Numbered from the stretch's first letter, positions 10,668 through 56,845 are shown. The stretch: DNA of 64,000 nt from Patescibacteria group bacterium (GCA_041645215.1 JBAZQK010000001.1:118091-182090); one strand, 5' to 3'. Translations and numbers: made by a program. Notes: a model not told the origin generated them from the letters alone.

Positions 10668-10798
10668 TAGGACTTACGCGTTTGTCATCCTGAACTTGGT
10701 TCAGGATCTCGGCACCGTTAAGAAAGGCTGAGATTCTGAAATAAATTCAGAATGACGGAATGAAAAAGCCTTATTTAGTATCAAACGCGTGAGTCCTA
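10668..10798. repeat. MITE-like element, copy 1: termini TAGGACTTACGCGTTTG ... CAAACGCGTGAGTCCTA, internal nested hairpins (ATCCTGAAC-ttg-GTTCAGGAT; ATTCTGAA-ataa-ATTCAGAAT)
   Basis: 17-bp terminal inverted repeat with 1 mismatch read directly; homologous termini at 44970, 55620, 56679. Confidence 0.6.
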
Positions 10799-10903
10799 TT
10801 ATAGATAAATTTGGTAGATTTGATTAAAATAAGTAGTTTGGTAGGTAAAATTGGGTCAGTTAAAAGGAGAAAACCAAGCCTTACGGGGCCTGGTTTTGGT
10901 AGA

Positions 10904-11161
10904 TTATTTGAAATTGATCACTTTTTTAAATTTTTTGTGATCGAAACCTTCTCGCTTGCATACTTGTACAAACAAATTTTTGTTTGTTACAGTAATTTTT
11001 ACATTTTTTTGTTGTACAAGTTCAAGAGTTCTTTTAATTTTACCGACTACTGCTCCTTGTGTTGACAGGTTAGAAGTGTTGATTGAGATTATATGAGGAC
11101 TACTTCCGCCGTTTGGATAAGTAGCAAGTGGTGTCCAGTTTTGTCCATTTGACTTTGCCAT
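10904..11161 (-). CDS. Hypothetical protein (weak call)
   Basis: 85-aa ORF in an otherwise gene-free 600-bp interval; no recognised motifs. Confidence 0.2.
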   Translation of the reverse strand: MAKSNGQNWTPLATYPNGGSSPHIISINTSNLSTQGAVVGKIKRTLELVQQKNVKITVTNKNLFVQVCKREGFDHKKFKKVINFK

Positions 11162-11426
11162 TTTTACTCCGAATAGTAGAGAATTGTTATTTTTGTTTTT
11201 TTTAGCTGTTTTAATCTGAACTCCCCCGCAGATTTAAAATTGAGTAAACAATGGTTTTAGCTGGTGTTAAGTTTCATTCTTCCTCCGACATTTGTTTTTA
11301 TTAACTTTGGATAGAGCGCTCGAGCACGAATTGATGGAGGATTCACCACCGACACGTGTTAACTCTATCCAAGTTGTTATTTTTTGGTAAATTACTTTAT
11401 ACCACGGATGTTTTATTTTGTCAATA

Positions 11427-13487
11427 TTATTCAGGATGAAAATCAATATTTTTTAATTGCTGTTTGATTTGCGGCCATTTGGTAAAATTAGGGTCAGTTT
11501 GAATTGTATATTGAGCCGCGTTTCTAACAGTTACTAAAAGTTCGGCGTTTACTAAATCAGCGTACTTAAGATTAAAATAGCCCGATTGGATATCACCAAG
11601 TAAACTACCCGGTCCGCGTTCGGCCAGGTCATATTCAGCCAGGGCAAAGCCGTTTTGGTATTTAACCATAGCTTGTAAGCGTGATGGTAAATTATTTTTT
11701 TGGTCCGTAAACAATAAACAATAACTTTGTCGGCTTGAACGCCCGACTCGGCCGCGCAGTTGATGCAGTTGGGCAATGCCAAAATGCTCCGCCCCTTCAA
11801 TCGCCATTATGGTGGCCTCCGGTACATCTACCCCAACTTCAACCACCGTGGTTGTTACCAGTATTGGAGTAGTGCCATTTTTAAAATTGTTCATCGCTTC
11901 AGTTTTTTGCTGACTGGACATTTTGCCATGCAACCGGCCAATTTTTATAGATTTAAACACCTCTTGGGCTAACCGGTCAGCTTCAGTCGTGACGGATTTT
12001 TGACCGCCTTCGTCGTCGTCTTCAATTAACGGGCAAATTATAAAAACTCGGTTTTGTTCAGCTATTTCTTGTTTAATTAATTGATAGGCCGCGGTTCTTT
12101 GATTTGGTTCTACGATTTTAGTAGTTATGGGCAGGCGGCCGCTCGGCATTGATTTGATTAAGGAAATATCCAAATCACCGTAGATTGACAGAGCTAACGA
12201 ACGGGGAATAGGCGTGGCCGATAATGATAAAAGATGAGGGTATAGAGCTTGTGGCTGGTTCATTAAATAGCGCCTTTGCTCCACGCCAAAACGGTGTTGC
12301 TCGTCGATTATGACAAATCCCAGCCGAGCCCATTGTATAGTTTTTTGCAATAAACTGTGCGTGCCGACAATAATGTTTATTTTATCTTCAGCCAACAATT
12401 TTTTTATGCTGGCACTGGTAGTTTTTTTATTGTCGTTTGGTCGGTTTAGTAAATGATAGCCGCGTGATAATAAAGCCAACGATATGGGGTAATCTTTAAA
12501 TAAATCAGCCAGGGTATGAAAATGCTGTTTGGCCAGAATTTCCGTGGGCGCTACCAAGGCCACTTGCCAGCCGGCTTTAACGGCGTTTAAGGCCGCAATG
12601 CCCGCCACGATGGTTTTACCAGATCCAACATCACCTTGTAATAACCTAAACATTGGCTTGGCTTGTCCCAGGTCTTTAATAATTTTCCAGGCGGCCTGTT
12701 TTTGGTCAACTGTTAACTGCCAAGGCAGGCCGGCCACAAAATTTTTAGTGTCAGGCGAGTAGTCAATAACCGGTGACTTAAGCTGTCGCAATGATTGGCG
12801 GGCCAACTTGGCCTGCAAGTTGATTAAGTATAGTTCATCAAAAGCCAAGCGGCGACGAGCCTGTAGGATGTCGTTGTGGTTTTTAGGAAAGTGTAATTGA
12901 ATTATAGTTTGGTTTAAATTTATTATTTTAGCTTGGTTTTTTATGGCGGCGGGCAACCAATCATTTATTCCTTTGGCTAAAGGTAATACTTTATTAATTT
13001 GTGTTCTTAACCAGTGGTTGTTTAACAAGCCGTGTAATGAATAATAGGGCACCAGCCGGCCAGTATGTACGCCATAGGTTTTGCTTGGTTCGTAGGTTGG
13101 TTGTTCCAGTTGCAAGCCGTAGTTAGACAGTGATAGTTTGCCCGACAGGAGAATTATATCGCCGGCTTTTAAATTTTTTATCAGATAAGGCTGATTAAAC
13201 CAAATAGCTTTAATACTGCCGGTATCGTCGCTTATTACGGCCTGGGTAATGGTTAAACGGCTTTTAAACGAGCGGCGAGCGCTTATTAGGTTAACGCGGC
13301 CTTTAATGGTAACTTTATCGCCGGCGGTTAGTTGTTTAATAGGAGTGATTTGTGAATAATCCTCATATCTAATGGGTAAGTGCCACAGTAAATCATTGAC
13401 TGTAAAAATTTCCAAGGTAGCCAGTTTTTTGGCCATGGCCGGGCCAATGCCGCTGATATTGGTTATTGGGTTTAATAGCGAAAGCAT
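11427..13487 (-). CDS. recG: ATP-dependent DNA helicase RecG
   Basis: Wedge-domain N-terminus, helicase motifs GDVGSGKT, DEQHRFGV, 686 aa. Confidence 0.9.
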   Translation of the reverse strand: MLSLLNPITNISGIGPAMAKKLATLEIFTVNDLLWHLPIRYEDYSQITPIKQLTAGDKVTIKGRVNLISARRSFKSRLTITQAVISDDTGSIKAIWFNQPYLIKNLKAGDIILLSGKLSLSNYGLQLEQPTYEPSKTYGVHTGRLVPYYSLHGLLNNHWLRTQINKVLPLAKGINDWLPAAIKNQAKIINLNQTIIQLHFPKNHNDILQARRRLAFDELYLINLQAKLARQSLRQLKSPVIDYSPDTKNFVAGLPWQLTVDQKQAAWKIIKDLGQAKPMFRLLQGDVGSGKTIVAGIAALNAVKAGWQVALVAPTEILAKQHFHTLADLFKDYPISLALLSRGYHLLNRPNDNKKTTSASIKKLLAEDKINIIVGTHSLLQKTIQWARLGFVIIDEQHRFGVEQRRYLMNQPQALYPHLLSLSATPIPRSLALSIYGDLDISLIKSMPSGRLPITTKIVEPNQRTAAYQLIKQEIAEQNRVFIICPLIEDDDEGGQKSVTTEADRLAQEVFKSIKIGRLHGKMSSQQKTEAMNNFKNGTTPILVTTTVVEVGVDVPEATIMAIEGAEHFGIAQLHQLRGRVGRSSRQSYCLLFTDQKNNLPSRLQAMVKYQNGFALAEYDLAERGPGSLLGDIQSGYFNLKYADLVNAELLVTVRNAAQYTIQTDPNFTKWPQIKQQLKNIDFHPE

Positions 13488-13732
13488 AGTTAATATTTTT
13501 AATCAATTTAGAAATTTTAAATTAAATAATTCAATAAACCCGCCTGCCAAAGCCGCTATCTTAAACACACTTGAACTACAAATCAGAGTACCGTAGTTTA
13601 GTGTCAATCCATCTATCATGTAAGGCGAGCGGCGGGCAGGAATTTTAAATTAAAAATTAATCATTATAATTACATTATAACCTTGAACCATAAATAAAAA
13701 CACCCCTTGAGGGTGCTTAGCTAATCATTTTG

Positions 13733-13846
13733 CCCCAGTAGGAACCCAGATAGTAGTCCCGCGGGGCAGGACACTACTGGGCAGGTCGAACCTACATTAC
13801 AAGCTCCGCAAGCTCGCGTTCTCTGCCTGCTGGCAGGTATTCTTCA
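13733..13846 (-). pseudogene. tRNA-Arg-derived partial copy (shares 36 nt anticodon-arm/T-stem segment with tRNA-Arg) with a ~40-nt hairpin inserted in the T-loop; cannot form D-arm
   Basis: GAACGCGAGCTTGCGGAGCTTGTAATGTAGGTTCGA identical to neighbouring tRNA; followed by CCCAGTAGTGTCC..GGGACTACTATCTGGG hairpin. Confidence 0.45.
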
Positions 13847-13858
13847 CCTAACCAAATC

Positions 13859-13930
13859 TGCCCCCGGTAGGAATCGAACCTACATTACAAGCTCCGCAAG
13901 CTCGCGTTCTATCCATTGAACTACGAGGGC
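13859..13930 (-). tRNA. tRNA-Arg (anticodon GCG), no encoded CCA
   Basis: Manual fold: GCCCTCG/CGGGGGC acceptor, D-stem GTTC/GAAC, anticodon loop TTGCGGA, T-arm GTAGG-TTCGATT-CCTAC. Confidence 0.75.
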
Positions 13931-14063
13931 CTGAAGGAAATTTAAAAATTAAATATCAAAAATTAAAATGGTTTTGTATTTTTGTTTTTGACTTCTGATT
14001 TAAAATAAGCCCCACTATTGTAGGGTTAGTAAGTAAAAAAATCAAGGGCTGATTATTGCATGA

Positions 14064-14573
14064 TTACTGCAGTTTTAACAAGCGCGCCAACGCCTCCGAG
14101 GTGGGCTCATCCTCGCGCGACAAATCCTCGTTCAGAAATTTTATTAAGTGCTCACGAATGTTCAGCGGATTGGTTTTTTCCAGCGGAATAGTTAAGCGCG
14201 GCTCCAACAAACTTTTTGGTTCCAAGTAGAGGTTGGTTATTTCCGGCGGGTGGTAAGCTATCCAAAATTGGTTTACCTCTTTCCAGTGCCAGAATTTTTT
14301 ACCGACCGCTATTCCCGTTGATGTCAAACGGCAGTCAATTTGTCGGGGGCGGCGTTTGGTTTCATTAATAAACAAAGCCCCGCCCATCAGTAATATAAGG
14401 GCAAACAAAAAGTTTCCGCTAAATAAAGCATAACCGAGCATGGCTAGTGTTACCAGTCCGGCGGTAATCCACCAGCGTTTACTGCGCTCTGGCGCTCTAA
14501 ACTCACGAAATTGCCAACGTAGGATGACATTGCCAATATTAGCTTGCGGGTCAACATTAAGGTTTATAGGCAT
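14064..14573 (-). CDS. Hypothetical membrane protein (two TM helices)
   Basis: 169-aa ORF with hydrophobic segments; no conserved motifs recognised. Confidence 0.4.
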   Translation of the reverse strand: MPINLNVDPQANIGNVILRWQFREFRAPERSKRWWITAGLVTLAMLGYALFSGNFLFALILLMGGALFINETKRRPRQIDCRLTSTGIAVGKKFWHWKEVNQFWIAYHPPEITNLYLEPKSLLEPRLTIPLEKTNPLNIREHLIKFLNEDLSREDEPTSEALARLLKLQ

Positions 14574-14598
14574 AGTTAGTTTAAGTATAACTTAGAGT

Positions 14599-15240
14599 TT
14601 GGATTTTGAGCAATATTTGTCATCTGGTAATTTAACCGGTTATTGTGTTAAGATAACAACCATGATTGATAAAAAATTTTTTAACCAACTAAAAAAGCGT
14701 TACCAAACCTCCGGCCAGGGTCGCCGGCAGCTTTCGGAAATGTCTAATCAGGCCCAATCTTTGAGCAAACAAGCCATTTTTGCCAGCCAACGAGGTGATT
14801 TAAATCAGGCGGCTGCTTTATTGAAACAGGCTGAGCAACAGCTGTTTAATGGGCAAAAATTAGTGCGTCAAATTGAAGATTTGGAAAACCAAGGCAGTTA
14901 TCGGGCGGCCTGGGAAGAATTTGCCGAGGCTAAATTATTTTATAATTATTTAACCACTGGTAATCTGGGCGCGATTATAAAGACCGAGTTACCCGTGGAG
15001 GTATATATTGGCGCGGTTAGTGATTTAGTGGGCGAGATGGTGCGTTATGCCGTTAAGCTGGCTACTGATGGCCAGGGCGTTAAGGTTGGCGCGGTAGTAA
15101 AAGTGGCCACCATCATCACGGCTATTTTAGGCGAGATGAATCTAACTGGCGGCTTGCGCAGTAAGTATGACCAGGCCAGGCATCATTTGCGCCGTTTGGA
15201 AGATATTCAATATGACTTGGCCATTAAACACCGCGCCTAG
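14599..15240 (+). CDS. Hypothetical helical protein
   Basis: 213-aa ORF (start may be Met at 14665); no confident family assignment. Confidence 0.35.
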   Translation: MDFEQYLSSGNLTGYCVKITTMIDKKFFNQLKKRYQTSGQGRRQLSEMSNQAQSLSKQAIFASQRGDLNQAAALLKQAEQQLFNGQKLVRQIEDLENQGSYRAAWEEFAEAKLFYNYLTTGNLGAIIKTELPVEVYIGAVSDLVGEMVRYAVKLATDGQGVKVGAVVKVATIITAILGEMNLTGGLRSKYDQARHHLRRLEDIQYDLAIKHRA

Positions 15241-15601
15241 TTTAAGAGGCATTGTTGTTAAAGGTTTAGGCGAAGGCAAGCCGTTAGGTTATCCCACGGC
15301 TAATTTAAAGTTGGCGGCTGACAGTGTACGTCCCGCCCCGGGGATTTATTTAACAACTGTCACTGGCTTGATTGCCCAACCATTGTATGGTTTATTGGTT
15401 TGCGGAGTACATCAGGAAAATGGGAACCAACCGCAAGTGGAAGTATATTTACTTGATTGGCATCAGGATATTTATGGCCGCGCTTTGGAGGTGTCAGTTG
15501 GTCATAAAATTAGAAATTTAGTTTTCACTGATGACGTAGCCGAGCTTAAAAAATTGATTGAGCAAGACATTGCAACCGCGCGGCAATATTTTAAAATGTG
15601 A
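15212..15601 (+). CDS. Riboflavin kinase (monofunctional RibF C-terminal-domain type)
   Basis: GIVVKGLGEGKPLGYPTANL...GIYLTTV...EVYLLDWHQDIYGRALEV pattern of bacterial riboflavin kinase; internal Met at 15212 used as start. Confidence 0.6.
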   Translation: MTWPLNTAPSLRGIVVKGLGEGKPLGYPTANLKLAADSVRPAPGIYLTTVTGLIAQPLYGLLVCGVHQENGNQPQVEVYLLDWHQDIYGRALEVSVGHKIRNLVFTDDVAELKKLIEQDIATARQYFKM

Positions 15602-15647
15602 GGCACTCACTGACATTGTAGGACAACTACGTGGGGTATTCTACTGT

Positions 15648-15745
15648 GGCCGTCGGGGTTTTCAGACTTTTCGGCTGGTGGAGCGCGCCTGTCCACCTGT
15701 GGTGGAAAACCCCGCACCGATTCGATGTTCATCGGATCTGGTGCG
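15648..15745 (+). other. GC-rich highly structured segment (possible small RNA or complex terminator) downstream of riboflavin kinase
   Basis: Nested helices: GGGGTTTTC...GAAAACCCC; GGTGGA-gcgcgcctg-TCCACC; CACC-tgt-GGTG; GCACC...GGTGC. Confidence 0.3.
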
Positions 15746-15889
15746 TGGGTAGTACGTTATGGTAGGTTTAGTATTTGGTATCTGATCACTGATTTGACAA
15801 ATAGTTACAATAGGACTAATCTTTAAAAAACTAAAATATATTTAGCAACAATTAAATAACAATACAAAAAACAAATATTAAGGTGAGCT

Positions 15890-16108
15890 ATGTCAATTAG
15901 GAGCGTTTGTCCTTGTGGGTGCATATGCCACGTAACCGGGCATTGTGGAGTTGTTGGACCATGTTGTTACTACGCAGGAAAACTGTGGGAGAATGGCAGA
16001 TTTGTAACCAGTGATATTAGTAGTCCTGTAATGAGGCGTGCACTGAAGTATACTAAAAAGATTTTGTCAAAAAAGCCGCCAAAGAAAAAATCAAAGAATA
16101 AAAAATAG
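15890..16108 (+). CDS. Small Cys-rich basic-tailed protein (72 aa)
   Basis: CPCGCICHVTGHCGVVGPCCYY then KKKSKNKK tail; SD-like AAGGTGAG upstream; hairpin GTGCCAttaacaTGTGGCAC downstream. Confidence 0.4.
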   Translation: MSIRSVCPCGCICHVTGHCGVVGPCCYYAGKLWENGRFVTSDISSPVMRRALKYTKKILSKKPPKKKSKNKK

Positions 16109-16246
16109 TTGCCATTGTTGTATCAAAATTGAAGTGCCATTAACATGTGGCACTTATTTATTGTAGTGGAGATAGTCGGTTAGTTATTTTCCCTCATCCT
16201 TCTAAGGGGGCCAAAAAGAACCTCACTTAGATGTTGTGGCTTTAAT

Positions 16247-17077
16247 TCAGGTAGAATTTTGATTGGTTGCCAAGCGATAAACATTCCAAAGCAGCATAGC
16301 TACCGTCATAGGCCCCACGCCACCCGGCACGGGCGTTAAATAGACTGACCGATTTATAAAATCGGCAGCTTTAATGTCGCCCTTAAGTTGATTGTTTACT
16401 TTGGTGGTGCCAACATCTATTAGGATGGTGCCGTCTTTTACCATTTGACCAGTGATTATTTCCGGTTGCCCCAGGGCCACAATAATAATGTCAGCCTTAA
16501 GTAATTCAGCCGCTTCCGGCTGGAGACTGGTTTTTACCACTAATCCAAGTTGTCCGAGTAGCCAGCTTAAGGGCTGGGAGAATTCTTCACTATTAGCTAA
16601 AATTAAGACAGCTTTGTTTTTTAATTCCAAACCGGTTAGATTTATTAGTTTAATAATACCTTCACTAAGACCGGGAATAATTGATGGTTGTCCGCTGGTC
16701 AATTTTTTTAAGTTTAGCGGGTGAAAACCATCAGCATCTTTATTAGGGTCAATAGAGTTAATAACTGTTTGTTCGGGTAAAGGGGCGGGTAAGGGCAATT
16801 GCACTAAAATGCCGTGGATATTGGCGTTTTCATTAAAAGTTTTAACAGCTCCAGTAATTTGGGAGAGTGTGGCGGTGGCTGGTAAGATGATTTTATTAAC
16901 ACTGATGCCAACTTCAGCCGCGGCTTTTTCTTTTAGGCTGACATATAAATGTGAAGCTGGGTCATCGCCAACTAAAATTACCCCTAGACATGGGGTAAAA
17001 TCTAGAGCTGATATTTTTAGTTTAAGTTCTTGCAAAAGCTGTTCGGCAAGAGCGCGTCCGTTTAACAGAGTGGCCAT
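16247..17077 (-). CDS. folD: Bifunctional methylenetetrahydrofolate dehydrogenase/cyclohydrolase FolD
   Basis: GILVQLPLP, DADGFHPLNLKKL motifs; 276 aa. Confidence 0.9.
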   Translation of the reverse strand: MATLLNGRALAEQLLQELKLKISALDFTPCLGVILVGDDPASHLYVSLKEKAAAEVGISVNKIILPATATLSQITGAVKTFNENANIHGILVQLPLPAPLPEQTVINSIDPNKDADGFHPLNLKKLTSGQPSIIPGLSEGIIKLINLTGLELKNKAVLILANSEEFSQPLSWLLGQLGLVVKTSLQPEAAELLKADIIIVALGQPEIITGQMVKDGTILIDVGTTKVNNQLKGDIKAADFINRSVYLTPVPGGVGPMTVAMLLWNVYRLATNQNST

Positions 17078-18370
17078 TTAGTTTAATTCAGGATATAAAG
17101 GATATTGCTTAGTTAAATTTTTAACTCGCTGTTTGGCCTTTTCTAAAATTGATTCATCAACCGGTGATTTTAGAACCGAACTTATAATTTGGCCAATTTC
17201 CATCATGACTTCTTCCTTCATACCGCGGGTGGTTAAAGCCGGCGTGCCCAAGCGAATACCGGAAGGGTCCAGCGGCGAGCGGCTGTCATAAGGAATAAGA
17301 TTTTTATTTACCGTGATGCCGACGGTATCAAGAACCGTTTCGGCGGCCTGGCCGGTTAAGTTGAAGTTGCTGACGTCCATAAGTATTAAATGGTTGTCAG
17401 TGCCGCCGGTTATTAAGTTGGCGCCGGACGCAGTTAAAGTTTTGGCCAACGCTTTACTGTTCTTAACAATTTGACTGGCATAATTTTTAAAGTCCGGCTG
17501 ACTAGCCTCTTTTATCGCTACCGCAATAGCGGCGGTTTGGTGGTTATGGGGGCCGCCTTGCAACCCGGGAATAATGGCGGCGTCAATTAATTCCGCCAGG
17601 TTCCGTTTGCTGGTCGCGTGATAAAGGTCGTGCCAGCGGTCGGCAACATTCGGCGTCATTATAATTGCCCCGCGCGGTCCGCGTAAGGTTTTATGAGTGG
17701 TAGTCATCACGATATCGGCATAGGGAACGGGCGATTGGTGTTGGCCGCCAATAACTAATCCGGCAATATGTGATATATCAGCTAACAAATAAGCCTTTAC
17801 TTCATCGGCGATGACGCGGAAGCGGGAAAAATCAATTTGCCGCGGGTAGGCGGTAGCTCCGCAAATAATAAGTTTAGGTTTGGTGGCGCGGGCAATTTTA
17901 CTGATTTCCTCATAATTCAGTAAATGAGAAGATTTATCAACACCATAACCAAAAGCTTTATAGAATCGGCCCGAGAAGTTTAGTTTATAGCCATGGGTTA
18001 AGTGGCCGCCTTGAGATAATTCCAGTCCCAGTATATTATCGCCTGGTTTAAGAAGGGCAAACATTACCGCTTGGTTGGCGGGTGATCCGGAATAAGACTG
18101 CACATTGGCGTGGGCGACGCCAAATAATTTTTTAACTCGCGCGCGGGCAATTTCTTCAATTTGGTCAATATATTTATTACCGCCATAATAGCGTTTGCCC
18201 GGATAACCTTCGGAATATTTATTGGTCAGGATGGTGCCGCTGGCGGCCATAACCGCCAGTGACGTAAAATTTTCCGAGGGTATCATTTCCAGGCCGTGGC
18301 GTTGGCGGTCAAGTTCCTGATTGATTAGTTTGGATATTTCAGGGTCAGTGTTTGGTAGCCAATTACGCAT
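17078..18370 (-). CDS. glyA: Serine hydroxymethyltransferase
   Basis: LEMIPSENFTSLAVMAASGTILTNKYSEGYPGKRYYGG, PLP-Lys context TTHKTLRGPRGA; 430 aa. Confidence 0.9.
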   Translation of the reverse strand: MRNWLPNTDPEISKLINQELDRQRHGLEMIPSENFTSLAVMAASGTILTNKYSEGYPGKRYYGGNKYIDQIEEIARARVKKLFGVAHANVQSYSGSPANQAVMFALLKPGDNILGLELSQGGHLTHGYKLNFSGRFYKAFGYGVDKSSHLLNYEEISKIARATKPKLIICGATAYPRQIDFSRFRVIADEVKAYLLADISHIAGLVIGGQHQSPVPYADIVMTTTHKTLRGPRGAIIMTPNVADRWHDLYHATSKRNLAELIDAAIIPGLQGGPHNHQTAAIAVAIKEASQPDFKNYASQIVKNSKALAKTLTASGANLITGGTDNHLILMDVSNFNLTGQAAETVLDTVGITVNKNLIPYDSRSPLDPSGIRLGTPALTTRGMKEEVMMEIGQIISSVLKSPVDESILEKAKQRVKNLTKQYPLYPELN

Positions 18371-18481
18371 ATAATTATGGTACCTCCTCCGCGGCCAATT
18401 TGTCTACGTTTAGTTGTTTAGTTGGCCTGGTTTAGCTTGTTAAGCCGATTATAAAGCCTTATACTGATAAAGTAATAATTT

Positions 18482-19618: not shown

Positions 19619-19622
19619 AGAT

Positions 19623-20951: not shown

Positions 20952-20966
20952 AAAATTTTTATTATG

Positions 20967-21107
20967 CCCAGTAATACAACTTGGCTAGCACTCGCCCTAA
21001 CCACCAGCTATCATAATTTTATGTTTTATCTAACATCATTTAATCATTTATTCTTGTATAACCACGCTTCGTGCGTAAGGGTGGTTTAGCCAAGTTGATA
21101 TACTGGG
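20967..21107. repeat. Inverted-repeat hairpin element CCCAGTAATACAACTTGGCTAG ... TAGCCAAGTTGATATACTGGG ending 1 nt before murI ATG
   Basis: ~20-bp inverted repeat read directly; same CCCAGTAWWACWACTT terminus family as 1238 and 43165. Confidence 0.55.
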
Positions 21108-21108
21108 T

Positions 21109-21888
21109 ATGATTGGTTTATTTGATTCCGGCATTGGCGGATTAACCGTCGTGCGCGAGGTAATGAAAAAGTTACCTAACCAAAGTTTGCTTTATTTTGG
21201 CGATACGGCTCGTACACCCTACGGCAATAAAAGTCCGGAGGTAATTAAGCAGTATGGTTTGGAAGCGACGCGATTTTTGGTGGAGCATGGCGCTAAAGTG
21301 ATAGTGGTGGCTTGTAATACGGTATCAGCGGTGGGTATAGAAGCTATTAAGGAGCACTATCCGGAAATAGAAGTTTTTGATGTTATAACTCCGGCGGTGC
21401 AGGCTATTAAGAATTTACCTCATGCTAAACGAATTGGCATTATGGGCACACGAGCTCTGGTTAACAGTGGCATTTATGAAAAATTATTAAACGCGCCTGG
21501 CCGCGAAGTGGTCTCTTATCCGGCGCCATTGTTAGTGCCGTTAGTAGAAGAGGGTTGGCTTAATAAACCCGAGACCAAACGGATTATTAAACATTATTTG
21601 TTACCCTTTAAACAGGCGCAAGTTGAGGTTTTGGTTTTAGCTTGTACCCATTATCCCTTAGTTAAAAAATTAATTATTGCCCGTTTAAGCAAGCGAACAA
21701 AAGTTATTGATCCAGCCCAGGAAACAGCCGCTGTGGTGGCCGCCTTAGTTAATAAACAGCCAGCCTTAGCCGTTTCCAGCGCTAAGCCGGAGCATCATTT
21801 TTTTGTGACTGACCTTACGGTTCACACCCAGGCCATAGCGCAGAAATGGTTACAACGAGAAGTTAATTTAGAAAAAGTAAATTTATAA
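21109..21888 (+). CDS. murI: Glutamate racemase
   Basis: FDSGIGGLTV, VVACNTVSAVG, LACTHYPL motifs. Confidence 0.9.
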   Translation: MIGLFDSGIGGLTVVREVMKKLPNQSLLYFGDTARTPYGNKSPEVIKQYGLEATRFLVEHGAKVIVVACNTVSAVGIEAIKEHYPEIEVFDVITPAVQAIKNLPHAKRIGIMGTRALVNSGIYEKLLNAPGREVVSYPAPLLVPLVEEGWLNKPETKRIIKHYLLPFKQAQVEVLVLACTHYPLVKKLIIARLSKRTKVIDPAQETAAVVAALVNKQPALAVSSAKPEHHFFVTDLTVHTQAIAQKWLQREVNLEKVNL

Positions 21889-43164: not shown

Positions 43165-44871
<1,707 letters not shown>

Positions 44872-44930
44872 CCAATAGCTGATAGCTAGTGGCAAATAGC
44901 TAATAGCGTATTATAACTAATAATAATCAA

Positions 44931-44960
44931 CTCCTCCGCTTGTACAAGCGGAGGAGTTTT
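44931..44960 (+). terminator. Rho-independent terminator after groEL
   Basis: CTCCTCCGC-ttgtacaa-GCGGAGGAG-TTTT. Confidence 0.75.
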
Positions 44961-44969
44961 GTATTTAAT

Positions 44970-45121
44970 TAGGATTTAGGCGTTTGGTCCCCATCTTAGG
45001 GTAAGGAAGGAGCTATGAACCATCTAAAAATCGTAACTCCCCCTTTACGGGGGGCTGTACGCCCTAACCCCTCTTTCCGCCAACTGGCGGACTAAGAGGG
45101 GGATGAAGCGCGTGAGTCCTA
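44970..45121. repeat. MITE-like element, copy 2: TAGGATTTAGGCGTTTG ... AAGCGCGTGAGTCCTA; interior hairpins CCCCCtttacGGGGG, CCGCCaactGGCGG
   Basis: Imperfect 17-bp terminal inverted repeat; interior TTCCGCCAACTGGCGGACTA homologous to copy 3. Confidence 0.55.
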
Positions 45122-45989: not shown

Positions 45990-45995
45990 TATCTT

Positions 45996-48404: not shown

Positions 48405-48461
48405 TAATTTAGCCGTTTTGGCTAAAATAGGAATAATTTATTATTTAATTTATACAATACT

Positions 48462-48851
48462 ATGTCCAACGAACTACTTTTTCTTATCGGTCGTGTTCTT
48501 TTTGGCGGTTATTTTTTAATGAATGCCATTAACCATTTCAGCCAGGCTGATATGTTGTCTGGCTACGCGGCCTCCCAAGGTGTTAAATCGCCAAAGTTAG
48601 CCGTTTTTGTGAGCGGTTTGCTCTTATTGGCGGGTGGCGCGGGCATACTGCTTGGTGTATATGTCAGCTGGGCAGTTTTGGCCCTGGTGCTATTCTTAGT
48701 GCCGGTATCGTTTAAGATGCACGCTTTTTGGAAAGTGTCTGAACCCAATATGAAAATGATGGAGATGGTAAACTTTACAAAAAATATGGCGTTGCTCGGC
48801 GCCGCTTTGATGCTTTTAGCTATTTCTACCCCCTGGCCGTTGTCGTTTTAA
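48462..48851 (+). CDS. DoxX-family membrane protein
   Basis: 129 aa, 4 TM, LFGGYFLMNAINHF N-terminus typical of DoxX. Confidence 0.5.
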   Translation: MSNELLFLIGRVLFGGYFLMNAINHFSQADMLSGYAASQGVKSPKLAVFVSGLLLLAGGAGILLGVYVSWAVLALVLFLVPVSFKMHAFWKVSEPNMKMMEMVNFTKNMALLGAALMLLAISTPWPLSF

Positions 48852-48983
48852 GCGGTGGCCTGTCCGCTTTGGGCGGAGAACCAGCTTGTTTGGAGCTTAA
48901 GGAGTTGGTGGAGGCTTGAGAAGCGGGTAGTTAGGATGGAATCAAAGAAATTATTTAACTTTATCAATTCCATAATAAGAGTT

Positions 48984-50012: not shown

Positions 50013-50173
50013 GTTTTTGTAGATATTGAATTATTGAGAATTTAATCAATAATGTCATTATTGTCAACATAATATTCAAGAATATGGGCGTATTTATTGG
50101 TAAATAACGACATTTCATTGCGAACGACGACTAAAAAGTTGACATATTTTAAAATATTACATAGTATAACTTT

Positions 50174-50923
50174 ATGGACATAAGAAATATATTAGAAGCC
50201 TTAGGTTTAAATAAAAAGCAAGTAGATATTTATCTTACTTGCCTTGAACATGGGCCCGAAACTATTACAAATATTTCTAAACTGTCAGGCCACAAACGCT
50301 CCACCATTTATAACGTTATAGAGGATTTGCTTAGGGGCGGATTCTTGGTACTTATTCGTAGAAATAAACATACCCTATACGATGCCGAGAAACCCAAGCG
50401 ATTATTGACTATTATTAGAGCTCGTGAGAGAGAATTGGAGCAATTACTTCCGCAGTTAGAAACTATTCGAAATACAAAAAAAGAAATACCAAACATTCAA
50501 ATTCTTGAATCGGAAGTTTCTGTAAAAAACTTATATGATGAAGTGTATTCAAGTTTTAATAATAAAGATGAGGTCTGTTTTTTGAGCGCTGTCGGTGACT
50601 TGTTTAAAAATCTTCCTCTGGTAATGGATGCTTATTTTGCAAAATTTCATAATCGTAAAGATTATAAAATTCGGGAACTAATCTTAAACGACGAGGAGGG
50701 CAGGCGTTATGTTAGATTGTTGCGCCATAAAGGTATCTCGCACCCTGTTAAATTATTGCCAACCGACTTCCCTATTTTTAATGATCTAGTAATCTATGAG
50801 AATAAGGTTCTTATAGCCAGCTTTAAAAATAGGGTTATCGTAACCTTATTTGATAATCCAGAAATTTTTTTAACGCTCAAAACGCTTTTTGAGTGGGCTT
50901 GGCAAAATGGCAAATTGGTTTAA
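50174..50923 (+). CDS. TrmB-family (winged-HTH) transcriptional regulator
   Basis: N-terminus NILEALGLNKKQVDIYLTCLEHGPETITNISKLSGHKRSTIYNVIEDL. Confidence 0.5.
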   Translation: MDIRNILEALGLNKKQVDIYLTCLEHGPETITNISKLSGHKRSTIYNVIEDLLRGGFLVLIRRNKHTLYDAEKPKRLLTIIRARERELEQLLPQLETIRNTKKEIPNIQILESEVSVKNLYDEVYSSFNNKDEVCFLSAVGDLFKNLPLVMDAYFAKFHNRKDYKIRELILNDEEGRRYVRLLRHKGISHPVKLLPTDFPIFNDLVIYENKVLIASFKNRVIVTLFDNPEIFLTLKTLFEWAWQNGKLV

Positions 50924-51160
50924 TATTGCCCTACTAGGACATTATCACGTTGCCGCGACATTGCTGCGACACGGCCTTGACAAATATAGCTAGATGAATT
51001 ATATTATCTTGTTCTTTAACAAAAGTTTATAGTCCTCTGTTGTGGCCATTTTCATACTGGTCAGAACAGAGGGTTGTAAACAATGGGTCTAGTTCAAAAA
51101 ATAAATCATAAACTACAAATAATTCAATAATCAAAAACCAAAAACGAAGGAGGTGTCATT

Positions 51161-51301
51161 ATGACAAGCTGGATAACAATAGGCCAGTACGAATATGAGT
51201 ATAACGAAGCTGGCTACACTGGCTGGTGCCGATGCGTCGGCGGAATGATGGCCAAGGGGAAATGGCCCCAATGGAATTATCTAACCGGCACCACACGTTA
51301 A
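51161..51301 (+). CDS. Small protein (46 aa) with strong SD GAAGGAGGTG, Trp/Cys-rich
   Basis: MTSWITIGQYEYEYNEAGYTGWCRCVGGMMAKGKWPQWNYLTGTTR; SD 7 nt upstream; not in ORF track (<60 aa). Confidence 0.4.
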   Translation: MTSWITIGQYEYEYNEAGYTGWCRCVGGMMAKGKWPQWNYLTGTTR

Positions 51302-51341
51302 CCATTAATCAACAAAAATAAATAACTCATGGGAGGTTACT

Positions 51342-51632
51342 TTGAGTAATAACATCAAAAAAATCAAACGCCACGTCTATTTTAGCGGTAATGTACAGAG
51401 TCTAGAATTTCTGACTCCGGACGGTAAAAAGGCTACCATTGGCGTAATAATGCCAGGCGAATACAATTTCGGCACAGCTAAACAAAAAGAAACAATTTCT
51501 GTCTTGCAGGGTATGGTCTTTACAAAGGAAGGCAGTCTTCGCCCTGGTGGCTATCCAATCGTGTTTGAGCCAGGTACGAAAATTATATTTTCCTGCCCTG
51601 AACCAGTCGCCTATTTATGTCTTTATGGCTAA
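51342..51632 (+). CDS. ppnP: Pyrimidine/purine nucleoside phosphorylase PpnP (YaiE/DUF1255 cupin)
   Basis: HVYFSGNVQSLEF...GVIMPGEYNFGTA...YLCLYG collinear with E. coli YaiE; TTG start with GGGAGG SD. Confidence 0.75.
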   Translation: MSNNIKKIKRHVYFSGNVQSLEFLTPDGKKATIGVIMPGEYNFGTAKQKETISVLQGMVFTKEGSLRPGGYPIVFEPGTKIIFSCPEPVAYLCLYG

Positions 51633-51638
51633 AACTAT

Positions 51639-51676
51639 AAAGAGACGCAAACAAAATTAAAGTGTGTAGGGCAACG
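51639..51676. terminator. Bidirectional terminator between ppnP and convergent small ORF
   Basis: AGTGTGT-agggcaacgccca-ACACACT flanked by A-run/T-run. Confidence 0.6.
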
Positions 51677-51797
51677 CCCAACACACTCTTTTTTTATTAA
51701 AAACTAACACCATCAACTGGCTTATGTTCAAATTAAACTTCCGGCGAATTATTTAATTGTTATTAAATTGTTGACTAGAGCCTTAACAATTAATTTC

Positions 51798-51875
51798 TTA
51801 AGCAGCCGGGGTGGTTGGTTCAACCGGAGGGCAAGTGCATGGCTCATTGTCACATTTCGGGCAAACATCTGTCAT
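51798..51875 (-). CDS. 25-aa Cys-rich peptide with strong SD (AAGGAG, 9-nt spacing)
   Basis: MTDVCPKCDNEPCTCPPVEPTTPAA; four Cys in CxxC...CxC arrangement; not in ORF track. Confidence 0.35.
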   Translation of the reverse strand: MTDVCPKCDNEPCTCPPVEPTTPAA

Positions 51876-51988
51876 ATACCTAGGCTCCTTTCTACCCCGC
51901 GGGTTCTTTATAAAAAAACTTACGAGTTACGTAAATAATTAGCTAGCTAAGAATAGCATATGAGATAAACCCGTTAACTATCAGCAGG

Positions 51989-52228
51989 ATGGTTTCAACG
52001 AAGATGGATTTCTTTTTTCCCTGTCGGAGTTTTACGGTAATGCCATTGGAAATCCAAGTATTTGATACCGCTGGTTTTCTTGCTCGGCAAGAAATAAAGG
52101 ATACTGGCCAGCAAGTAGTGTTTTACAAATTTGCTGGTGGAACAGTCATTGAGCTTGGCGACAACGGCAAATACATAACTGTTGACAGAGACGAATGGCT
52201 CGTTAAGTTTCCACGGACTAGTAACTAA
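51989..52228 (+). CDS. Hypothetical protein
   Basis: 79-aa ORF followed by terminator CCACCttatagttttttcgaGGTGG-TCTTTTTTT (52268-52300). Confidence 0.35.
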   Translation: MVSTKMDFFFPCRSFTVMPLEIQVFDTAGFLARQEIKDTGQQVVFYKFAGGTVIELGDNGKYITVDRDEWLVKFPRTSN

Positions 52229-52437
52229 GAAAGTCTGAAAAAACAAAACTAAGTTATTAATTCAGGGCCACCTTATAGTTTTTTCGAGGTGGTCTTTTTT
52301 TATCAAAAAATCACCCGCATCGGGTGGCTTATGATTTTTACCGTTGCCGGGAACCCCGATAGTAGTCCCGCTAAGCGGGACACTACGGCGCAAGTCAAAC
52401 CCTGGTTTTTATTCATCCACCAAATTAAATATTAGCT

Positions 52438-52512
52438 TGGTAGCCCCTAGGGGAATCGAACCCCTATTACGTCATTGAAAGCGACGTGTCCTAACCATTA
52501 GACGAAGGGGCC
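52438..52512 (-). tRNA. tRNA-Glu (anticodon TTC), CCA encoded
   Basis: Manual fold: 3-bp D-stem GTC/GAC typical of tRNA-Glu, anticodon loop CTTTCAA, T-arm AGGGG-TTCGATT-CCCCT, ...ACCA. Confidence 0.75.
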
Positions 52513-52582
52513 ATAATATTTGGTGGGCGGGTTGGAAAAGCGTGGTGCCTGCCCCGCACCGAGCTCAGCTCTGGTGCTGGGG

Positions 52583-52605
52583 TCCTAACCATTAGACGAT
52601 AGCGG
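52583..52605 (-). repeat. tRNA-Glu 5'-fragment copy B (GCCGCTATCGTCTAATGGTTAGGAC) then unrelated sequence
   Basis: Matches acceptor/D-arm of tRNA-Glu; homology ends inside anticodon stem. Confidence 0.5.
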
Positions 52606-52846
52606 CATGTAGATTATTAAATAACTCAATTCTAGCTTTGGCTGTCTTTTTAAGAAATAGTTCTCTTTTTCTAGCTAACATTCGGTTACTGTAAGCTTCA
52701 GTATATATAACCTTTAGCGGTCTATATGCTTTAGTAGATTTGACCTTACCTTTATTATGCTCTAGCAGCCTTCTTTCAACATTATCCGTACTGCCTATAT
52801 AATGCCAATTTTTCTTATTTCCTAAAAGTACATAAAGATAATACAT
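52592..52846 (-). CDS. GIY-YIG nuclease-superfamily protein, YhbQ/UPF0213-like (84 aa)
   Basis: MYYLYVLLGNKKNWHYIGSTDNVERRLLEHNKGKVKSTKAYRPLKVIYTE... = GIY-YIG core with YIG and Arg/Glu catalytic positions. Confidence 0.7.
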   Translation of the reverse strand: MYYLYVLLGNKKNWHYIGSTDNVERRLLEHNKGKVKSTKAYRPLKVIYTEAYSNRMLARKRELFLKKTAKARIELFNNLHAAIV

Positions 52847-52898
52847 ACTTTAACAAACTATGGTTGTGTCTCCTCCGGAGGAGGACCCGTCTCCGACG

Positions 52899-52920
52899 GG
52901 CTAACCATTAGACGAAGGGG
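52899..52920 (-). repeat. tRNA-Glu 5'-fragment copy A (GGCCCCTTCGTCTAATGGTTAG) followed by hairpins CCCGTCggaGACGGG and TCCTCCTCCGGAGGAGA
   Basis: 22/22 identity to 5' end of tRNA-Glu at 52491-52512. Confidence 0.55.
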
Positions 52921-53034
52921 CCGCGTGTCAAGCGTTGACATTCTAAAATGTAATTGATTCTAAGTCAACCAGTTGGTTAATTGTTGGTAAAATCTTGTCC
53001 AATACAGTAGCCTTGCTATACTGTTTATATAAGT

Positions 53035-53496
53035 ATGTCAGTATTTTCTTTTTTTGTTAAAGCCGATAGTGTGCCCGCCGCCGTCCCTAATCAGACTGTC
53101 GTTAAGGCCGGTAAAATTGCACCAACTGATGCTGAATCAGCCGTGGAGTGGTACTCGGATGAGTATGAAGGGCAGTTATCAGTGGATGTTTTTCAAACGC
53201 CTGATTATGTAGTGGTACGATCCACGATTGCCGGCGTCAGGCCGGAAGATTTGGATATTACTTTGAATAATGATGTTATTACTATCCGCGGCCGGCGTTA
53301 CCAAGAGGCTGAGGTTGCGCCGGAGGATTATTTTTATCAGGAGTGTTACTGGGGCGGTTTTTCGCGCTCCATTGTGCTGCCGGTGGAGGTTGACCCCGAG
53401 AAAGTGGAGGCGAGTTTAAAAAACGGGGTTCTGACAATTAAATTACCAAAAATTAAAACTAAGAGCGTGTCGGTAAAGGTGGAGGTAGAGGAATAA
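53035..53496 (+). CDS. Hsp20/alpha-crystallin-family small heat-shock protein
   Basis: 153 aa; alpha-crystallin domain VDVFQTPDYVVVRSTIAGVRPEDLDITLNNDVITIRGRR...LKNGVLTIKLPK. Confidence 0.75.
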   Translation: MSVFSFFVKADSVPAAVPNQTVVKAGKIAPTDAESAVEWYSDEYEGQLSVDVFQTPDYVVVRSTIAGVRPEDLDITLNNDVITIRGRRYQEAEVAPEDYFYQECYWGGFSRSIVLPVEVDPEKVEASLKNGVLTIKLPKIKTKSVSVKVEVEE

Positions 53497-53501
53497 TAAT
53501 T

Positions 53502-53723
53502 ATGGCTAATACTGTTCAATTAACCCTTGACCGTGTTGAAGGCGACCAGGCAATTTTAGTTTTTAGCGACCACATGCAAATTACGCTCCCGCTATCCTTA
53601 ATGCCTATCGGTACGACGGAAGGCTCGGTAGTTCGTTTGTCTATTGTCAAAGACGCTGACGCGACATTTGACCAGCAAGAGCAAGCTCGGCATTTGCTTA
53701 ACGAAGTCTTAAAGTCTAATTAA
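53502..53723 (+). CDS. Small hypothetical protein (DUF3006-like), translationally coupled to VanW-like gene (TAATG overlap)
   Basis: 73-aa ORF, stop overlaps next start. Confidence 0.35.
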   Translation: MANTVQLTLDRVEGDQAILVFSDHMQITLPLSLMPIGTTEGSVVRLSIVKDADATFDQQEQARHLLNEVLKSN

Positions 53724-55612
53724 TGAGTATACCAAAGCGTTATTTTTCGCCGCGTTGGCTGGGGGTGATTTTTCCCGTAGTTTTTTTGTTGCTACTGGGT
53801 GCCAGTTTATCGATTTATAATTTAGCCTATGCGACTCGAATTTTCCCCGGGGTGGCAATGGGACAAATTAGTTTGGCTGGTTTAACGGCTAGTCAGGCGG
53901 AAAGTAAATTAAGTTCGGTTTGGAATGATTATAGTCAGGCGGGAATAGTTGTAAAATCAGACAAGTATCAGGTTACCGTGCCGGCAGTTTTAAATTCCAC
54001 CAATTCTGATTTAGCCGTTAATTTAATGTATGTTTATTTGGCTCAAGCCGCTACGGCGGCTTATCAGGTTGGGCACAGCGGCGTTTGGTATAATGATTTA
54101 GTTGAGCCGGTGTTAATTAGATTATGGCCGACCTTTGGTCAAATAAAATTGCCGGTTGACATTGATATAAATCGCCTAGTTAAATATATCAGCAGTAGTT
54201 TGCCCGAACTTGGCGCAAAATCAATTCCGGCGCGTTTGCGTTTAAATACCAACGACAAACTGGAAATAATCCCTGAAACTATAGGTAGAGAGATTGATGC
54301 CGTAGATTTAGGAATAAAGTTGCAGGCCAAAATTGAGACCATGTCAGCCGGGGCCATTGAATTAACGTTAAAATCTGAACCAGCCGCCGTGACCGCGCAA
54401 GAGTTAACAGTTTTGTTGCCGGCGGCGCAAGCCGCGTTAAAGCCGGTAAAATTAATTTTTACTTTTGCCGATGCGACTTGGGCAGCTCAACCAAGTGTGT
54501 GGCAGGCTTGGTTGCAGCCAGTGTTGAACCCGGACCAATTGGCGATTAGATTAAGCAGCGAGGCCGCCACTGGATTTTTCAGCGCCATCGGCCAGACAGT
54601 TAATCAGCCGGCGCAGGATGCTAAATTTGAGATTAAAGATGGCCGGGTAGAATTATTTCAAGCCAGCCAAGAAGGTCGGGAGGTTGATATTTCGGCCACC
54701 TTGGCTCAAATCAATGAGAAACTGGCGGCGATAGACAATAATATAACCTGGCCTTTGGTAGTTAAATCAACCCAACCAAATGTAACCACCGCCGAAGTTA
54801 ACAATCTGGGAGTTACTGAAATTATTGGTACCGGTAAGTCTAATTTTGCCGGTAGTCCGCCCAATCGCCGCCATAATATTAAAGTTGGGGCTGATAAGTT
54901 GAACGGCGTAATTATTCAGCCGGATGAAGAATTTTCGCTGGTTAAAACCTTAGGCGCGATTGATGCGGCATCCGGTTATTTGCAGGAATTAGTTATAAAG
55001 GGCAATAAAACTATTCCGGAGTACGGTGGCGGCTTGTGTCAAATTGGCACCACTACTTTTCGGGCGGCTTTAAGTTCAGGGTTGCCGATTTTAGAGCGAC
55101 GCAGCCATTCTTACCGGGTGCCTTATTATGAACCGGCTGGTACTGACGCCACCATTTACGACCCCAGTCCGGATTTTAAGTTTAAGAACGATACCGGCCG
55201 GGCAATTTTGATACAAACTAAAATCAAGGGCGATGAGTTGATATTTGAATTTTGGGGAGCTAAGGACGGGCGGCAGGCGGAGCAGACCAAGCCGCGCATC
55301 TATAATATTGTTAAACCGCCGCCAACTAAAATTATTGAAACAACTGAATTGCCGGTTGGTCAAAAAAAATGCACGGAAAAGGCGCATACGGGAGCGGATG
55401 CCGAATTTAATTACAAAGTTACTTATCCGAGCGGTGAGGTTAAAGATCAAACATTTCGCAGTCATTATGTACCATGGCAGGAGGTTTGTTTGCTGGGGGT
55501 GGCTAAATTAGATTCAAGTGAACAAAATTCAACCAGCGATAGTTCAGCCGCAACTCCGTCCGCCTCGTCCGATTTACCAGCCGCTGATATTTCTGGTCAA
55601 ACCGGAAATTAA
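53723..55612 (+). CDS. VanW-domain protein with N-terminal TM anchor and peptidoglycan-binding-like repeats
   Basis: VanW signature NRRHNIKVGADKLNGVIIQPDEEFSLVKTLG...GGGLCQIGTTTFRAALSSGLPILERRSHSY...DATIYDPSPDFKFKNDTG. Confidence 0.75.
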   Translation: MSIPKRYFSPRWLGVIFPVVFLLLLGASLSIYNLAYATRIFPGVAMGQISLAGLTASQAESKLSSVWNDYSQAGIVVKSDKYQVTVPAVLNSTNSDLAVNLMYVYLAQAATAAYQVGHSGVWYNDLVEPVLIRLWPTFGQIKLPVDIDINRLVKYISSSLPELGAKSIPARLRLNTNDKLEIIPETIGREIDAVDLGIKLQAKIETMSAGAIELTLKSEPAAVTAQELTVLLPAAQAALKPVKLIFTFADATWAAQPSVWQAWLQPVLNPDQLAIRLSSEAATGFFSAIGQTVNQPAQDAKFEIKDGRVELFQASQEGREVDISATLAQINEKLAAIDNNITWPLVVKSTQPNVTTAEVNNLGVTEIIGTGKSNFAGSPPNRRHNIKVGADKLNGVIIQPDEEFSLVKTLGAIDAASGYLQELVIKGNKTIPEYGGGLCQIGTTTFRAALSSGLPILERRSHSYRVPYYEPAGTDATIYDPSPDFKFKNDTGRAILIQTKIKGDELIFEFWGAKDGRQAEQTKPRIYNIVKPPPTKIIETTELPVGQKKCTEKAHTGADAEFNYKVTYPSGEVKDQTFRSHYVPWQEVCLLGVAKLDSSEQNSTSDSSAATPSASSDLPAADISGQTGN

Positions 55613-55619
55613 TTTTAAC

Positions 55620-55743
55620 AGGATTTACGCGTTTGACTTTCGGAAGGTGGTGTTTTTGTAGCCGTCATTCTGACCCGCTTCCGCAACTCCGGCGGACATT
55701 GGGTCAGAATCTCTTGATTCAGTGAAGATAAACCCGTAAGTCC
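55620..55743. repeat. MITE-like element, copy 3: AGGATTTACGCGTTTG ... AAACCCGTAAGTCC; interior ATTCTGACCC...GGGTCAGAAT and CCGCAACTCCGGCGG hairpins
   Basis: Terminal inverted repeat and interior homology (TTCCGCAACTCCGGCGGACATT) to copy 2. Confidence 0.55.
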
Positions 55744-55781
55744 GGAGATTATTAGTCTTTTGGCAATTGATTTGACCAGTT

Positions 55782-56678
55782 ATGATTCAAAATTCAATTC
55801 AACTCCACCCCAATAAAGGGTTGGTGGCTTTAATGTTGGCTGCTCTTTTATACGGTTTATATGGTGTTATTTCAAAAATAGTTGGCATTGATTTTGGTGT
55901 TTTCTTTTTAGGCTGGAGTCGGGGAGTTATTATCGGTCTAGTTGTTCTAATAATTTTTTTTGTACGGCGGCATTGGATAAAGTTACAAACCGGAGATTAC
56001 AAATGGTTCGCCAGCATGAGTGCCGCCGGCGTGATTTCATTTTTGACGATTTTTGTGGCTTTTAATTATATACCAATCGGCACCGCCTTATTTATTTTTT
56101 TCTCAAGTTTAATTATAGCGAGTTACGTAATTGGCTATTGGCTGTTTAGAGAGCAATTAACCGTTAGTAAGTTAGTTCTACTGGGGCTGTCTTTGGCCGG
56201 ACTTATACTGCTTTTTTACGGACGTCTTGATGGTGATAATTGGCAGTTTTTGGCGCTCGCCTGTATTTCCGGGATAAGCGGCGCTATTTGGAATGTATTT
56301 TCTAAAAAAGTTTCGGTTGTTTATCCGCTCAGCGAAATAATTTTAATTGATGCCATAATGGCGATTATTATTTGTTTGCCGCTTTCCTTAGTGTTTAGAG
56401 AGCCAGTCTCATTCTTTAATTTTTTTACGGAATTACCCACCATTGGGCTATTCGCTTTTATAACAATTGGCGCCAATGCTATGACATTTACCGGCTTTAA
56501 AAATCTACCAGCGCAAATTGCCAGTATTATTATGTTATTGGAATTGGTCTATGGCGTTATTTTTGGCTGGTTATTCTTTAAGGAAATTTTATCGCCCCTG
56601 GAAATGGCTGGTGGAATACTGATTATTCTGGCGGTTGTTTTATCCAGTTTAATAGCCAAGGAGCGTGTTAGTATTTAA
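55782..56678 (+). CDS. EamA/DMT-family transporter (10 TM)
   Basis: 298 aa, duplicated 5-TM halves. Confidence 0.55.
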   Translation: MIQNSIQLHPNKGLVALMLAALLYGLYGVISKIVGIDFGVFFLGWSRGVIIGLVVLIIFFVRRHWIKLQTGDYKWFASMSAAGVISFLTIFVAFNYIPIGTALFIFFSSLIIASYVIGYWLFREQLTVSKLVLLGLSLAGLILLFYGRLDGDNWQFLALACISGISGAIWNVFSKKVSVVYPLSEIILIDAIMAIIICLPLSLVFREPVSFFNFFTELPTIGLFAFITIGANAMTFTGFKNLPAQIASIIMLLELVYGVIFGWLFFKEILSPLEMAGGILIILAVVLSSLIAKERVSI

Positions 56679-56845
56679 TAGGACTTACGCGTTTGAGCCA
56701 AGTTCGAGGCAAAACCGAGCATTTGAGCAAGCCGTAGTAAAACTACGGTGAGCGAAAAGCGGAGGTTTTAACGAAGAAATTGGCCAAAGCCGCTTGAGGG
56801 GTCGTCCCTGCGCCCGCCCCTAAAGCGGCAAACCCGTAAGTCCTA
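56679..56845. repeat. MITE-like element, copy 4: TAGGACTTACGCGTTTG ... CAAACCCGTAAGTCCTA with different interior; flanks GTATTTAAT / TTTAAGTCG shared with copy 2
   Basis: 17-bp terminal inverted repeat, 2 mismatches. Confidence 0.55.

Follow-up and report, generated by a model that had tools for sequence, protein, structure and literature searches.

Intergenic repeats of a Patescibacteria bacterium as probable miniature inverted-repeat transposable elements with the termini of an IS701-family insertion sequence

What are the small inverted-repeat elements scattered between the genes of a 64-kb stretch of DNA from a Patescibacteria (candidate phyla radiation, CPR) bacterium, and do they move as DNA or act as RNA? 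The stretch (GCA_041645215.1 JBAZQK010000001.1:118091-182090; hereafter the window, to the whole length of which all coordinates refer) had been read in a preliminary description, made from the sequence alone, as carrying a family of four to five copies resembling miniature inverted-repeat transposable elements (MITEs), or else a family of small structured RNAs. We consider it very probable (about 0.92) that the elements are MITEs bearing the terminal inverted repeats of a ~1.07-kb insertion sequence (IS) of the ISAba11/ISMesi2 group of the IS701 family. The MITE-like reading is supported by the identity of the element ends to those of the IS, by 5-bp target-site duplications, by further copies in many other genomes, and by a difference between filled and empty sites among relatives. 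Literature searches on the terminal sequence, on MITEs of Patescibacteria and on MITEs of the IS701 family returned no description of these elements. In kind, the family is ordinary.

All four elements were found where they had first been placed, each 127-167 bp long and ending in inverted repeats that are nearly perfect, TAGGAYTTASGCGTTTG ... CAAACSCGTRAGTCCTA. At up to 3 mismatches, AGGAYTTASGCGTTTG matched the window 10 times against 2.3 expected, a count reached in none of 100 shuffles, and eight of these ten matches form the arm pairs of copies 1-4; a repeat search of the window also recovered the arms of copies 1 and 4 as 18-22-nt inverted repeats. Copy 1 (131 bp, 10668-10798, no strand assigned) ends in TAGGACTTACGCGTTTG (10668-10684) and CAAACGCGTGAGTCCTA (10782-10798), and is flanked by the 5-mers ATATA (10663-10667) and TTATA (10799-10803). 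Copy 2 (152 bp, 44970-45121, no strand assigned), with a perfect left arm, 3 mismatches in the right arm and an interior of C-rich and G-rich hairpins, has the groEL terminator (44929-44958) on one side and, on the other, the conserved TGTGCTATAAT promoter belonging to the following gene, and its flanking 5-mers, TTAAT and TTGAA, read as a decayed duplication. Copy 3 (127 bp, 55619-55745, no strand assigned) begins 7 nt past the stop codon of a VanW-family gene, and combines a perfect left arm with a degenerate right arm (3 mismatches); its left flank is TTTAA (55614-55618), without a match on the right. Copy 4 (167 bp, 56679-56845, plus strand), which contains a distinct interior that we term type-b, shows a perfect 5-bp target duplication, TTTAA (56674-56678) and TTTAA (56846-56850), of which the left member includes the TAA stop codon of an EamA-family gene.

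The description of the elements as sited just 3' of genes holds, with copies 1-4 lying 150, 98, 7 and 0 nt past the upstream stop codon, and amounts to an intergenic location of all four. Flanks noted as common to copies 2 and 4 (GTATTTAAT / TTKAAGTCG) are indeed present and include the 5-bp target duplication, intact in copy 4 and decayed in copy 2; the joined flank, GTATTTAAGTCG, is not repeated elsewhere in the window, and the idea of a repeated target was dropped. Also present is the interior segment common to copies 2 and 3, TTCCGC(C)AACTSSGGCGGAC. A degenerate copy proposed at ~4862-4978 proved real but shorter, ending at 4952: this probable decayed copy (4864-4952, no strand assigned) retains the outer 9 nt of both arms, AGGACTTAC ... 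GCAAGTCCT, with the inner half of each arm diverged and no target duplication at its flanks. A tblastn search of the window with a 322-aa IS transposase, described below, returned no transposase (best E = 0.22), and the window copies are therefore non-autonomous.

To what extent does the family occur beyond this genome? Searching the termini in other genomes, as had been proposed, yielded many additional copies: a one-genome-per-species scan for AGGAYTTACGCGTTTG identified at least 118 loci, mostly in metagenome-assembled genomes (MAGs) of Patescibacteria, and among the listed loci a few were labelled Bdellovibrionales, Gammaproteobacteria, Planctomycetales and methanogenic archaea. One Kaiserbacteria MAG possessed up to ~10 copies among the matches listed. 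As chance alone should, by our own estimate, yield a few hundred occurrences of a 16-mer in 596 Gb, only loci with two arms in inverted order were counted, and single-arm matches were left out. Together with the window copies, this resulted in 79 two-armed elements, mostly of 61-344 bp and with very different interiors. Taking the element ends as Y-AGGAC...GTCCT-R and comparing the five bases outside each end, we found identical 5-mers directly outside the termini in 33 of the 79 elements and a one-base difference in 16 more, compared with only 0-3 identical pairs when the register was shifted by 1-3 nt. Duplicated 5-mers include CGGAA, AGTGT and GAACT, such that the signal does not derive from AT-rich flanks. 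Among viral contigs there were 10 single-arm 16-mer matches, no two-armed element and no type-b core pattern, and hence no sign of phage carriage.

An autonomous partner was identified at three loci in other genomes (L046, L101 and L033), where an element of 1,071-1,072 bp with the same termini encloses a single 322-aa open reading frame (ORF); the 17-18-bp ends of the window type also bound IS copies at L137-L141. The ORF product matches the NCBIfam model NF049921 (IS701-family transposase) at 368.8 bits (E = 2.5e-110; cut-off 250), as well as the Pfam domains DDE_Tnp_1 and DDE_5. Full-length copies are flanked by duplications of ATATA (L137), GAATT (L138-L140) and ATAAA (L141). The final transposase codons and stop (TTG GCA AAC GCG TAA) fall within the right terminal repeat, conservation of which is probably raised because it encodes the end of the protein. 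Homologues of the transposase number 4,628 at E <= 1e-20, many of them on contigs of ~1.1 kb, the pattern that collapse of a repeat would give.

The nearest annotated homologues of this transposase are labelled 'IS701-like element ISMesi2' (44% identity) and 'ISAba11' (36% identity), and both named elements resemble the parent IS in comprising ~1.1 kb with one DDE transposase gene. ISAba11, an IS701-family member of Acinetobacter baumannii (1,101 bp, ends TAGGACTTACGCATTGAC), shares the outer repeat TAGGACTTACGC, its outer 12-13 bases being the same as in the window termini, and its CATAT/CATAT flanks are 5-bp repeats like those of the parent IS group. ISMesi2, also of the IS701 family, from Allomeiothermus silvanus (ends TAGGAGTTACGCAGTTG; outer repeats TAGGAGTTACGC / TAGGACTTACGC), nearly matches the window termini and, like the parent IS, has its stop codon within the right repeat. 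A third IS, on a Methanosarcina barkeri plasmid, has ends TTAGGACTTACGCAGTT and flanks ATGGT/ATGGT. Together, these ends show the outer 12-13 bases to be the signature of the IS group across bacteria and archaea, and TAGGACTTACGC, which marks the ISAba11/ISMesi2 group from Acinetobacter to archaea, is an aid to annotation. Beyond the modest transposase identities, the window elements differ from both named elements in lacking a transposase. The group also departs from classical IS701 elements, which are 1.4-1.55 kb long and generate 4-bp duplications (PMC2266710), being shorter and duplicating 5 bp. Separately, frameshifted transposase copies of 47% identity were observed beside an exact 16-nt terminus at L066 (4054-5000) and at L024 (Methanoregula sp. 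chromosome CP121470), placing the IS group, in decayed form, also in an archaeal genome labelled complete.

Do relatives of the host retain sites without the element? The closest relatives by GroEL, including Candidatus Kerfeldbacteria, are 90-91% identical, and four of their contigs keep the gene order groES, groEL, a 152-aa ORF, a MamF-like ORF and PPDK. In these contigs the spacer between groEL and the 152-aa ORF is 102-110 bp long and contains no element, compared with 291 bp in the window, and window and relatives alike retain the terminator that precedes the copy 2 site and the TGTGCTATAAT promoter that follows it. Copy 2 is thus absent from the orthologous groEL spacer, an empty site of the kind that the preliminary description had proposed to seek. 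Further copies and empty sites both having been found, the MITE-like reading stands on each of these counts. In one of these relatives, the Kerfeldbacteria genome L004 (JACRFM01), a type-a element (named for the interior type of copy 1) is ~85% identical to copy 1 and occupies a non-orthologous locus.

These observations are consistent with a mechanism in which the elements are mobilised in trans by the partner transposase. A DDE transposase supplied by a full-length copy outside the window would recognise the 17-18-bp ends TAGGACTTACGCGTTTG, excise the element and insert it at an AT-rich target cut with a 5-bp stagger, so that 5 bp of the target are duplicated; the cut-and-paste chemistry is assumed here by analogy with IS4/IS701-type DDE transposases. 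Different MITE subfamilies would carry different hairpin-rich fillers, since, with only the ends needed, the interior would be free to differ. Several points weigh against this interpretation. The 64-kb window itself contains no full-length IS, and within it a perfect duplication occurs only at copy 4, those of copies 1 and 2 having decayed and that of copy 3 being absent. Matching 5-mers are missing beside the full-length elements at L046 and L101, and at L033 they appear only after a one-base shift; a plausible reason is that a multi-copy repeat was assembled chimerically. The relatives' groEL spacers have diverged, and the empty-site junction of copy 2 is not settable to the base. The interiors are unlike that of the IS, which indicates that the MITEs are not simple deletion derivatives, and the type-b interior covaries, as a model in which only the ends matter does not predict. 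A derivation of type-b by simple deletion of the IS was considered and set aside, there being only a weak 7/11 match beside the left repeat.

A comparable pairing of MITE and IS is MITEAba12 with ISAba12 (PMC6382973), a small element without an ORF, with IS-identical termini and duplications equal in length to those of its IS; intact duplications flank ~40% of its copies (PMC6382973) and 42% of the elements here. MITEAba12 differs in that its partner IS is co-resident, the partner here being seen in other genomes, and in that it belongs to the IS5 family, makes 9-bp duplications, has a near-uniform 113-bp sequence and is confined to Moraxellaceae (PMC6382973), compared with the many unrelated interiors and many phyla of the present elements. 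The siting at gene 3' ends, imperfect palindromes and variable interiors might alternatively suggest recombination sites or repetitive extragenic palindromic (REP)-type repeats, such as integron attC sites or REP and bacterial interspersed mosaic elements moved by a tyrosine transposase. We regard this as so improbable as to be negligible: the same termini bound an IS with a DDE transposase, 5-bp target duplications are made by neither attC nor REP elements, no attC core (GTTRRRY/RYYYAAC) is present, and a Pfam scan limited to 10 window proteins detected no integrase or REP-associated tyrosine transposase (RAYT). The DDE partner and the target duplications led us to reject both readings. Assignment to an IS group names a repeat that is common in small CPR genomes and gives its partner transposase; such repeats are easily taken for RNA genes, and they break assemblies. 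Elements placed between terminators and promoters, together with the possible import of a transporter discussed below, are also a visible source of gene-order change in otherwise streamlined genomes.

Could the elements instead be genes for small structured RNAs, with the 17-bp closing stem forming an RNA helix, for example for processing or protein binding, around a functional interior? All copies fold very stably, in favour of this reading: the predicted minimum free energy is -57.5 kcal/mol for copy 1 (z = -9.7) and -78.0 kcal/mol for copy 4 (z = -7.5), with z between -7.5 and -9.7 for copies 1, 2 and 4, and the window copies are stable when folded on either strand. Strong folding is also a property of intergenic small repeats such as Correia/NEMIS, ERIC, RUP and BOX, which can be co-transcribed with their neighbours and which are unrelated to the present family in terminal repeats and host range. 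The sequence of the stem is that of the end of a transposase-encoding IS, the elements are flanked by 5-bp target duplications, and copy 4 has an interior with no relation to those of copies 1, 2 and 3. Across arm positions 2-17 we counted 141 one-sided changes against 5 compensated ones; stem changes are thus almost never compensated, which suggests that each arm is kept for its own sequence, in the manner of a transposase site. Position 1 shows 13 compensated changes (T/A to C/G), tied to one lineage. Inside the elements, simple consensus scans identified nothing resembling a promoter or a terminator, and Rfam 15 returned no match to them at the gathering threshold or at E <= 10, the only matches at the gathering threshold being four tRNAs. 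Although the type-b interior described below covaries strongly and has more G-U than A-C pairs on one strand, it points at random with respect to flanking genes (12 opposite/opposite, 8 same/same), and we consider it very improbable that the elements are RNA genes. Of the earlier suggestion of a small structured RNA family, what survives is the covarying interior of copy 4; the closing stem does not covary, and as an identity for the whole family the suggestion is not supported. Likewise, the covariation analysis that had been proposed gave a divided result, with the terminal arms conserved in sequence and free of covariation, and the type-b interior covarying strongly.

What, then, do the interiors contain? 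The type-a interior, as in copy 1, comprises an inverted pair of GTCATYCTGA...TCAGRATCTC hairpin units. Units of this kind (GTCATYCTGA...TCAGRATC) were observed inside copies 1 and 3 and also free-standing in the window at 4980-5075, for example as GTCATCCTGAGCGCGAGCGAAGGAGCTC followed by a perfect 16-bp palindrome at 5042-5074, and near-identical 25-nt hairpin units occur at several sites in other genomes (L023, L020).

The type-b interior of copy 4 contains a structured core of ~90 nt (56697-56784, plus strand; 94.9 bits with our covariance model R1) built of helices P2, P3 and P5 about an asymmetric internal loop that is conserved, GAGGC / AACGAAG. Its hosts include Saccharibacteria, Doudnabacteria, Kaiserbacteria, and MAGs labelled Bdellovibrionales and Gammaproteobacteria. 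In longer type-b copies an extra hairpin interrupts the right repeat, leaving its outer 11-12 bases. Across 13 type-b sequences, 94.8% of cells were paired, compared with 75% in shuffled alignments and 28-44% when partners were slid, and 17 of 24 pairs had changed on both sides; among 31 distinct covariance-model matches, 93.7% were paired and 21 of 24 pairs showed double changes, although all these counts overstate independence because the copies are related by descent and the alignments are model-fitted. The modelled strand carries 39 G-U pairs against 9 A-C pairs, a hint that one strand is the folded one. R1 core matches were also identified within a variant terminal repeat, AGGACTCGTGATTTTG...CAAAATCACGAGTCCT (L083, 4541-4668), and, in core-like form, within an unrelated long-stem repeat family, GAGAYSRTTACAAAACT...AGTTTTGTAAYSRTCTC (L002, 2695-2868; L105, 4165-4325).

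One interpretation is that the MITEs carry, in the type-b core, a selected functional module, folded as RNA or as single-stranded DNA, that rides several terminal-repeat families. The covariation and conserved loop, the one-strand excess of G-U pairs, and the cores inside a variant repeat and an unrelated long stem all point in this direction. Orientation relative to genes is random, as it was for the RNA-gene interpretation; in the ~1 Mb searched, no more than three cores were found without the canonical terminal repeat around them, the genomic context points to no function or partner protein, and kinship among copies in model-fitted alignments makes the counts non-independent. On balance we find this interpretation doubtful. 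Slightly less likely still is the fuller claim that the core is not filler but a module kept by selection, through many compensatory changes, in at least three terminal-repeat families, in Patescibacteria and other phyla. If true, the MITEs would be vehicles for a mobile structured element, and the type-b core is the only part of the family that could lead to something new.

A further question concerns the gene enclosed by copies 3 and 4, which encodes an EamA-family transporter (Pfam EamA; 55782-56678, plus strand) and is a possible MITE-bounded passenger. Copies 3 and 4 may have arrived with this gene as one composite transposon, as opposed to two insertions on either side of a gene already in place. 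TTTAA stands on both outer flanks of the pair (55614-55618 and 56846-56850), the decayed arm of copy 3 is its inner one, and in two relatives the ruvB leader comes next after the VanW gene, the EamA gene being absent. However, copy 4 also possesses an inner TTTAA, overlapping the EamA stop codon, which fits a simple insertion at that point; TTTAA-like targets recur; and ~330 nt of further window-specific sequence (56851-57182) adjoins copy 4, which renders the empty site inexact. The GC content of the gene, 0.38-0.39 compared with 0.43-0.51 in neighbouring sequence, would suit an imported passenger, but may reflect only that it encodes a membrane protein. EamA genes near groES in the relatives are not orthologues. 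We therefore hold a composite origin as a tentative possibility, with separate insertions of copies 3 and 4 at least as likely. Movement of the EamA gene from the groES-proximal position of the relatives was rejected, the proteins being unrelated. A metagenome scan with EamA returned only a 61% relative in a different context and no empty site, and an exact-protein look-up of its product returned no record. The sequence adjoining copy 4 (56851-57182) is itself GC-rich and dense in hairpins, e.g. CCCGATGTACATCGGG and GGCGGAGCCCCGCTAAGCGGGGCGGAGG, and has no counterpart in the VanW-ruvB spacer of the relatives.

Other repeats were observed nearby. Upstream of ruvB, an intergenic element of ~125 nt (57183-57307) has a closing stem and the sequence GGTGGCAAGAAAATC...GATTCCCATGCTTGTCGTGCCACC; a Kerfeldbacteria relative (L145, 888-1008) carries a counterpart of 84% identity, and L146 conserves part of it. 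The element has no Rfam match even at E <= 10, and is a candidate conserved non-coding RNA or leader. As it overlaps a mechanically called ORF (57084-57410), that ORF is probably not a gene. A second set of intergenic inverted repeats, CCCAGTATAACTACTT / CCCAGTAATACAACTTGG, spaced ~140 bp apart, was found at 1237-1378 and 20967-21110 and may represent another small repeat family, with a related short palindrome located between groES and groEL (~43166-43200).

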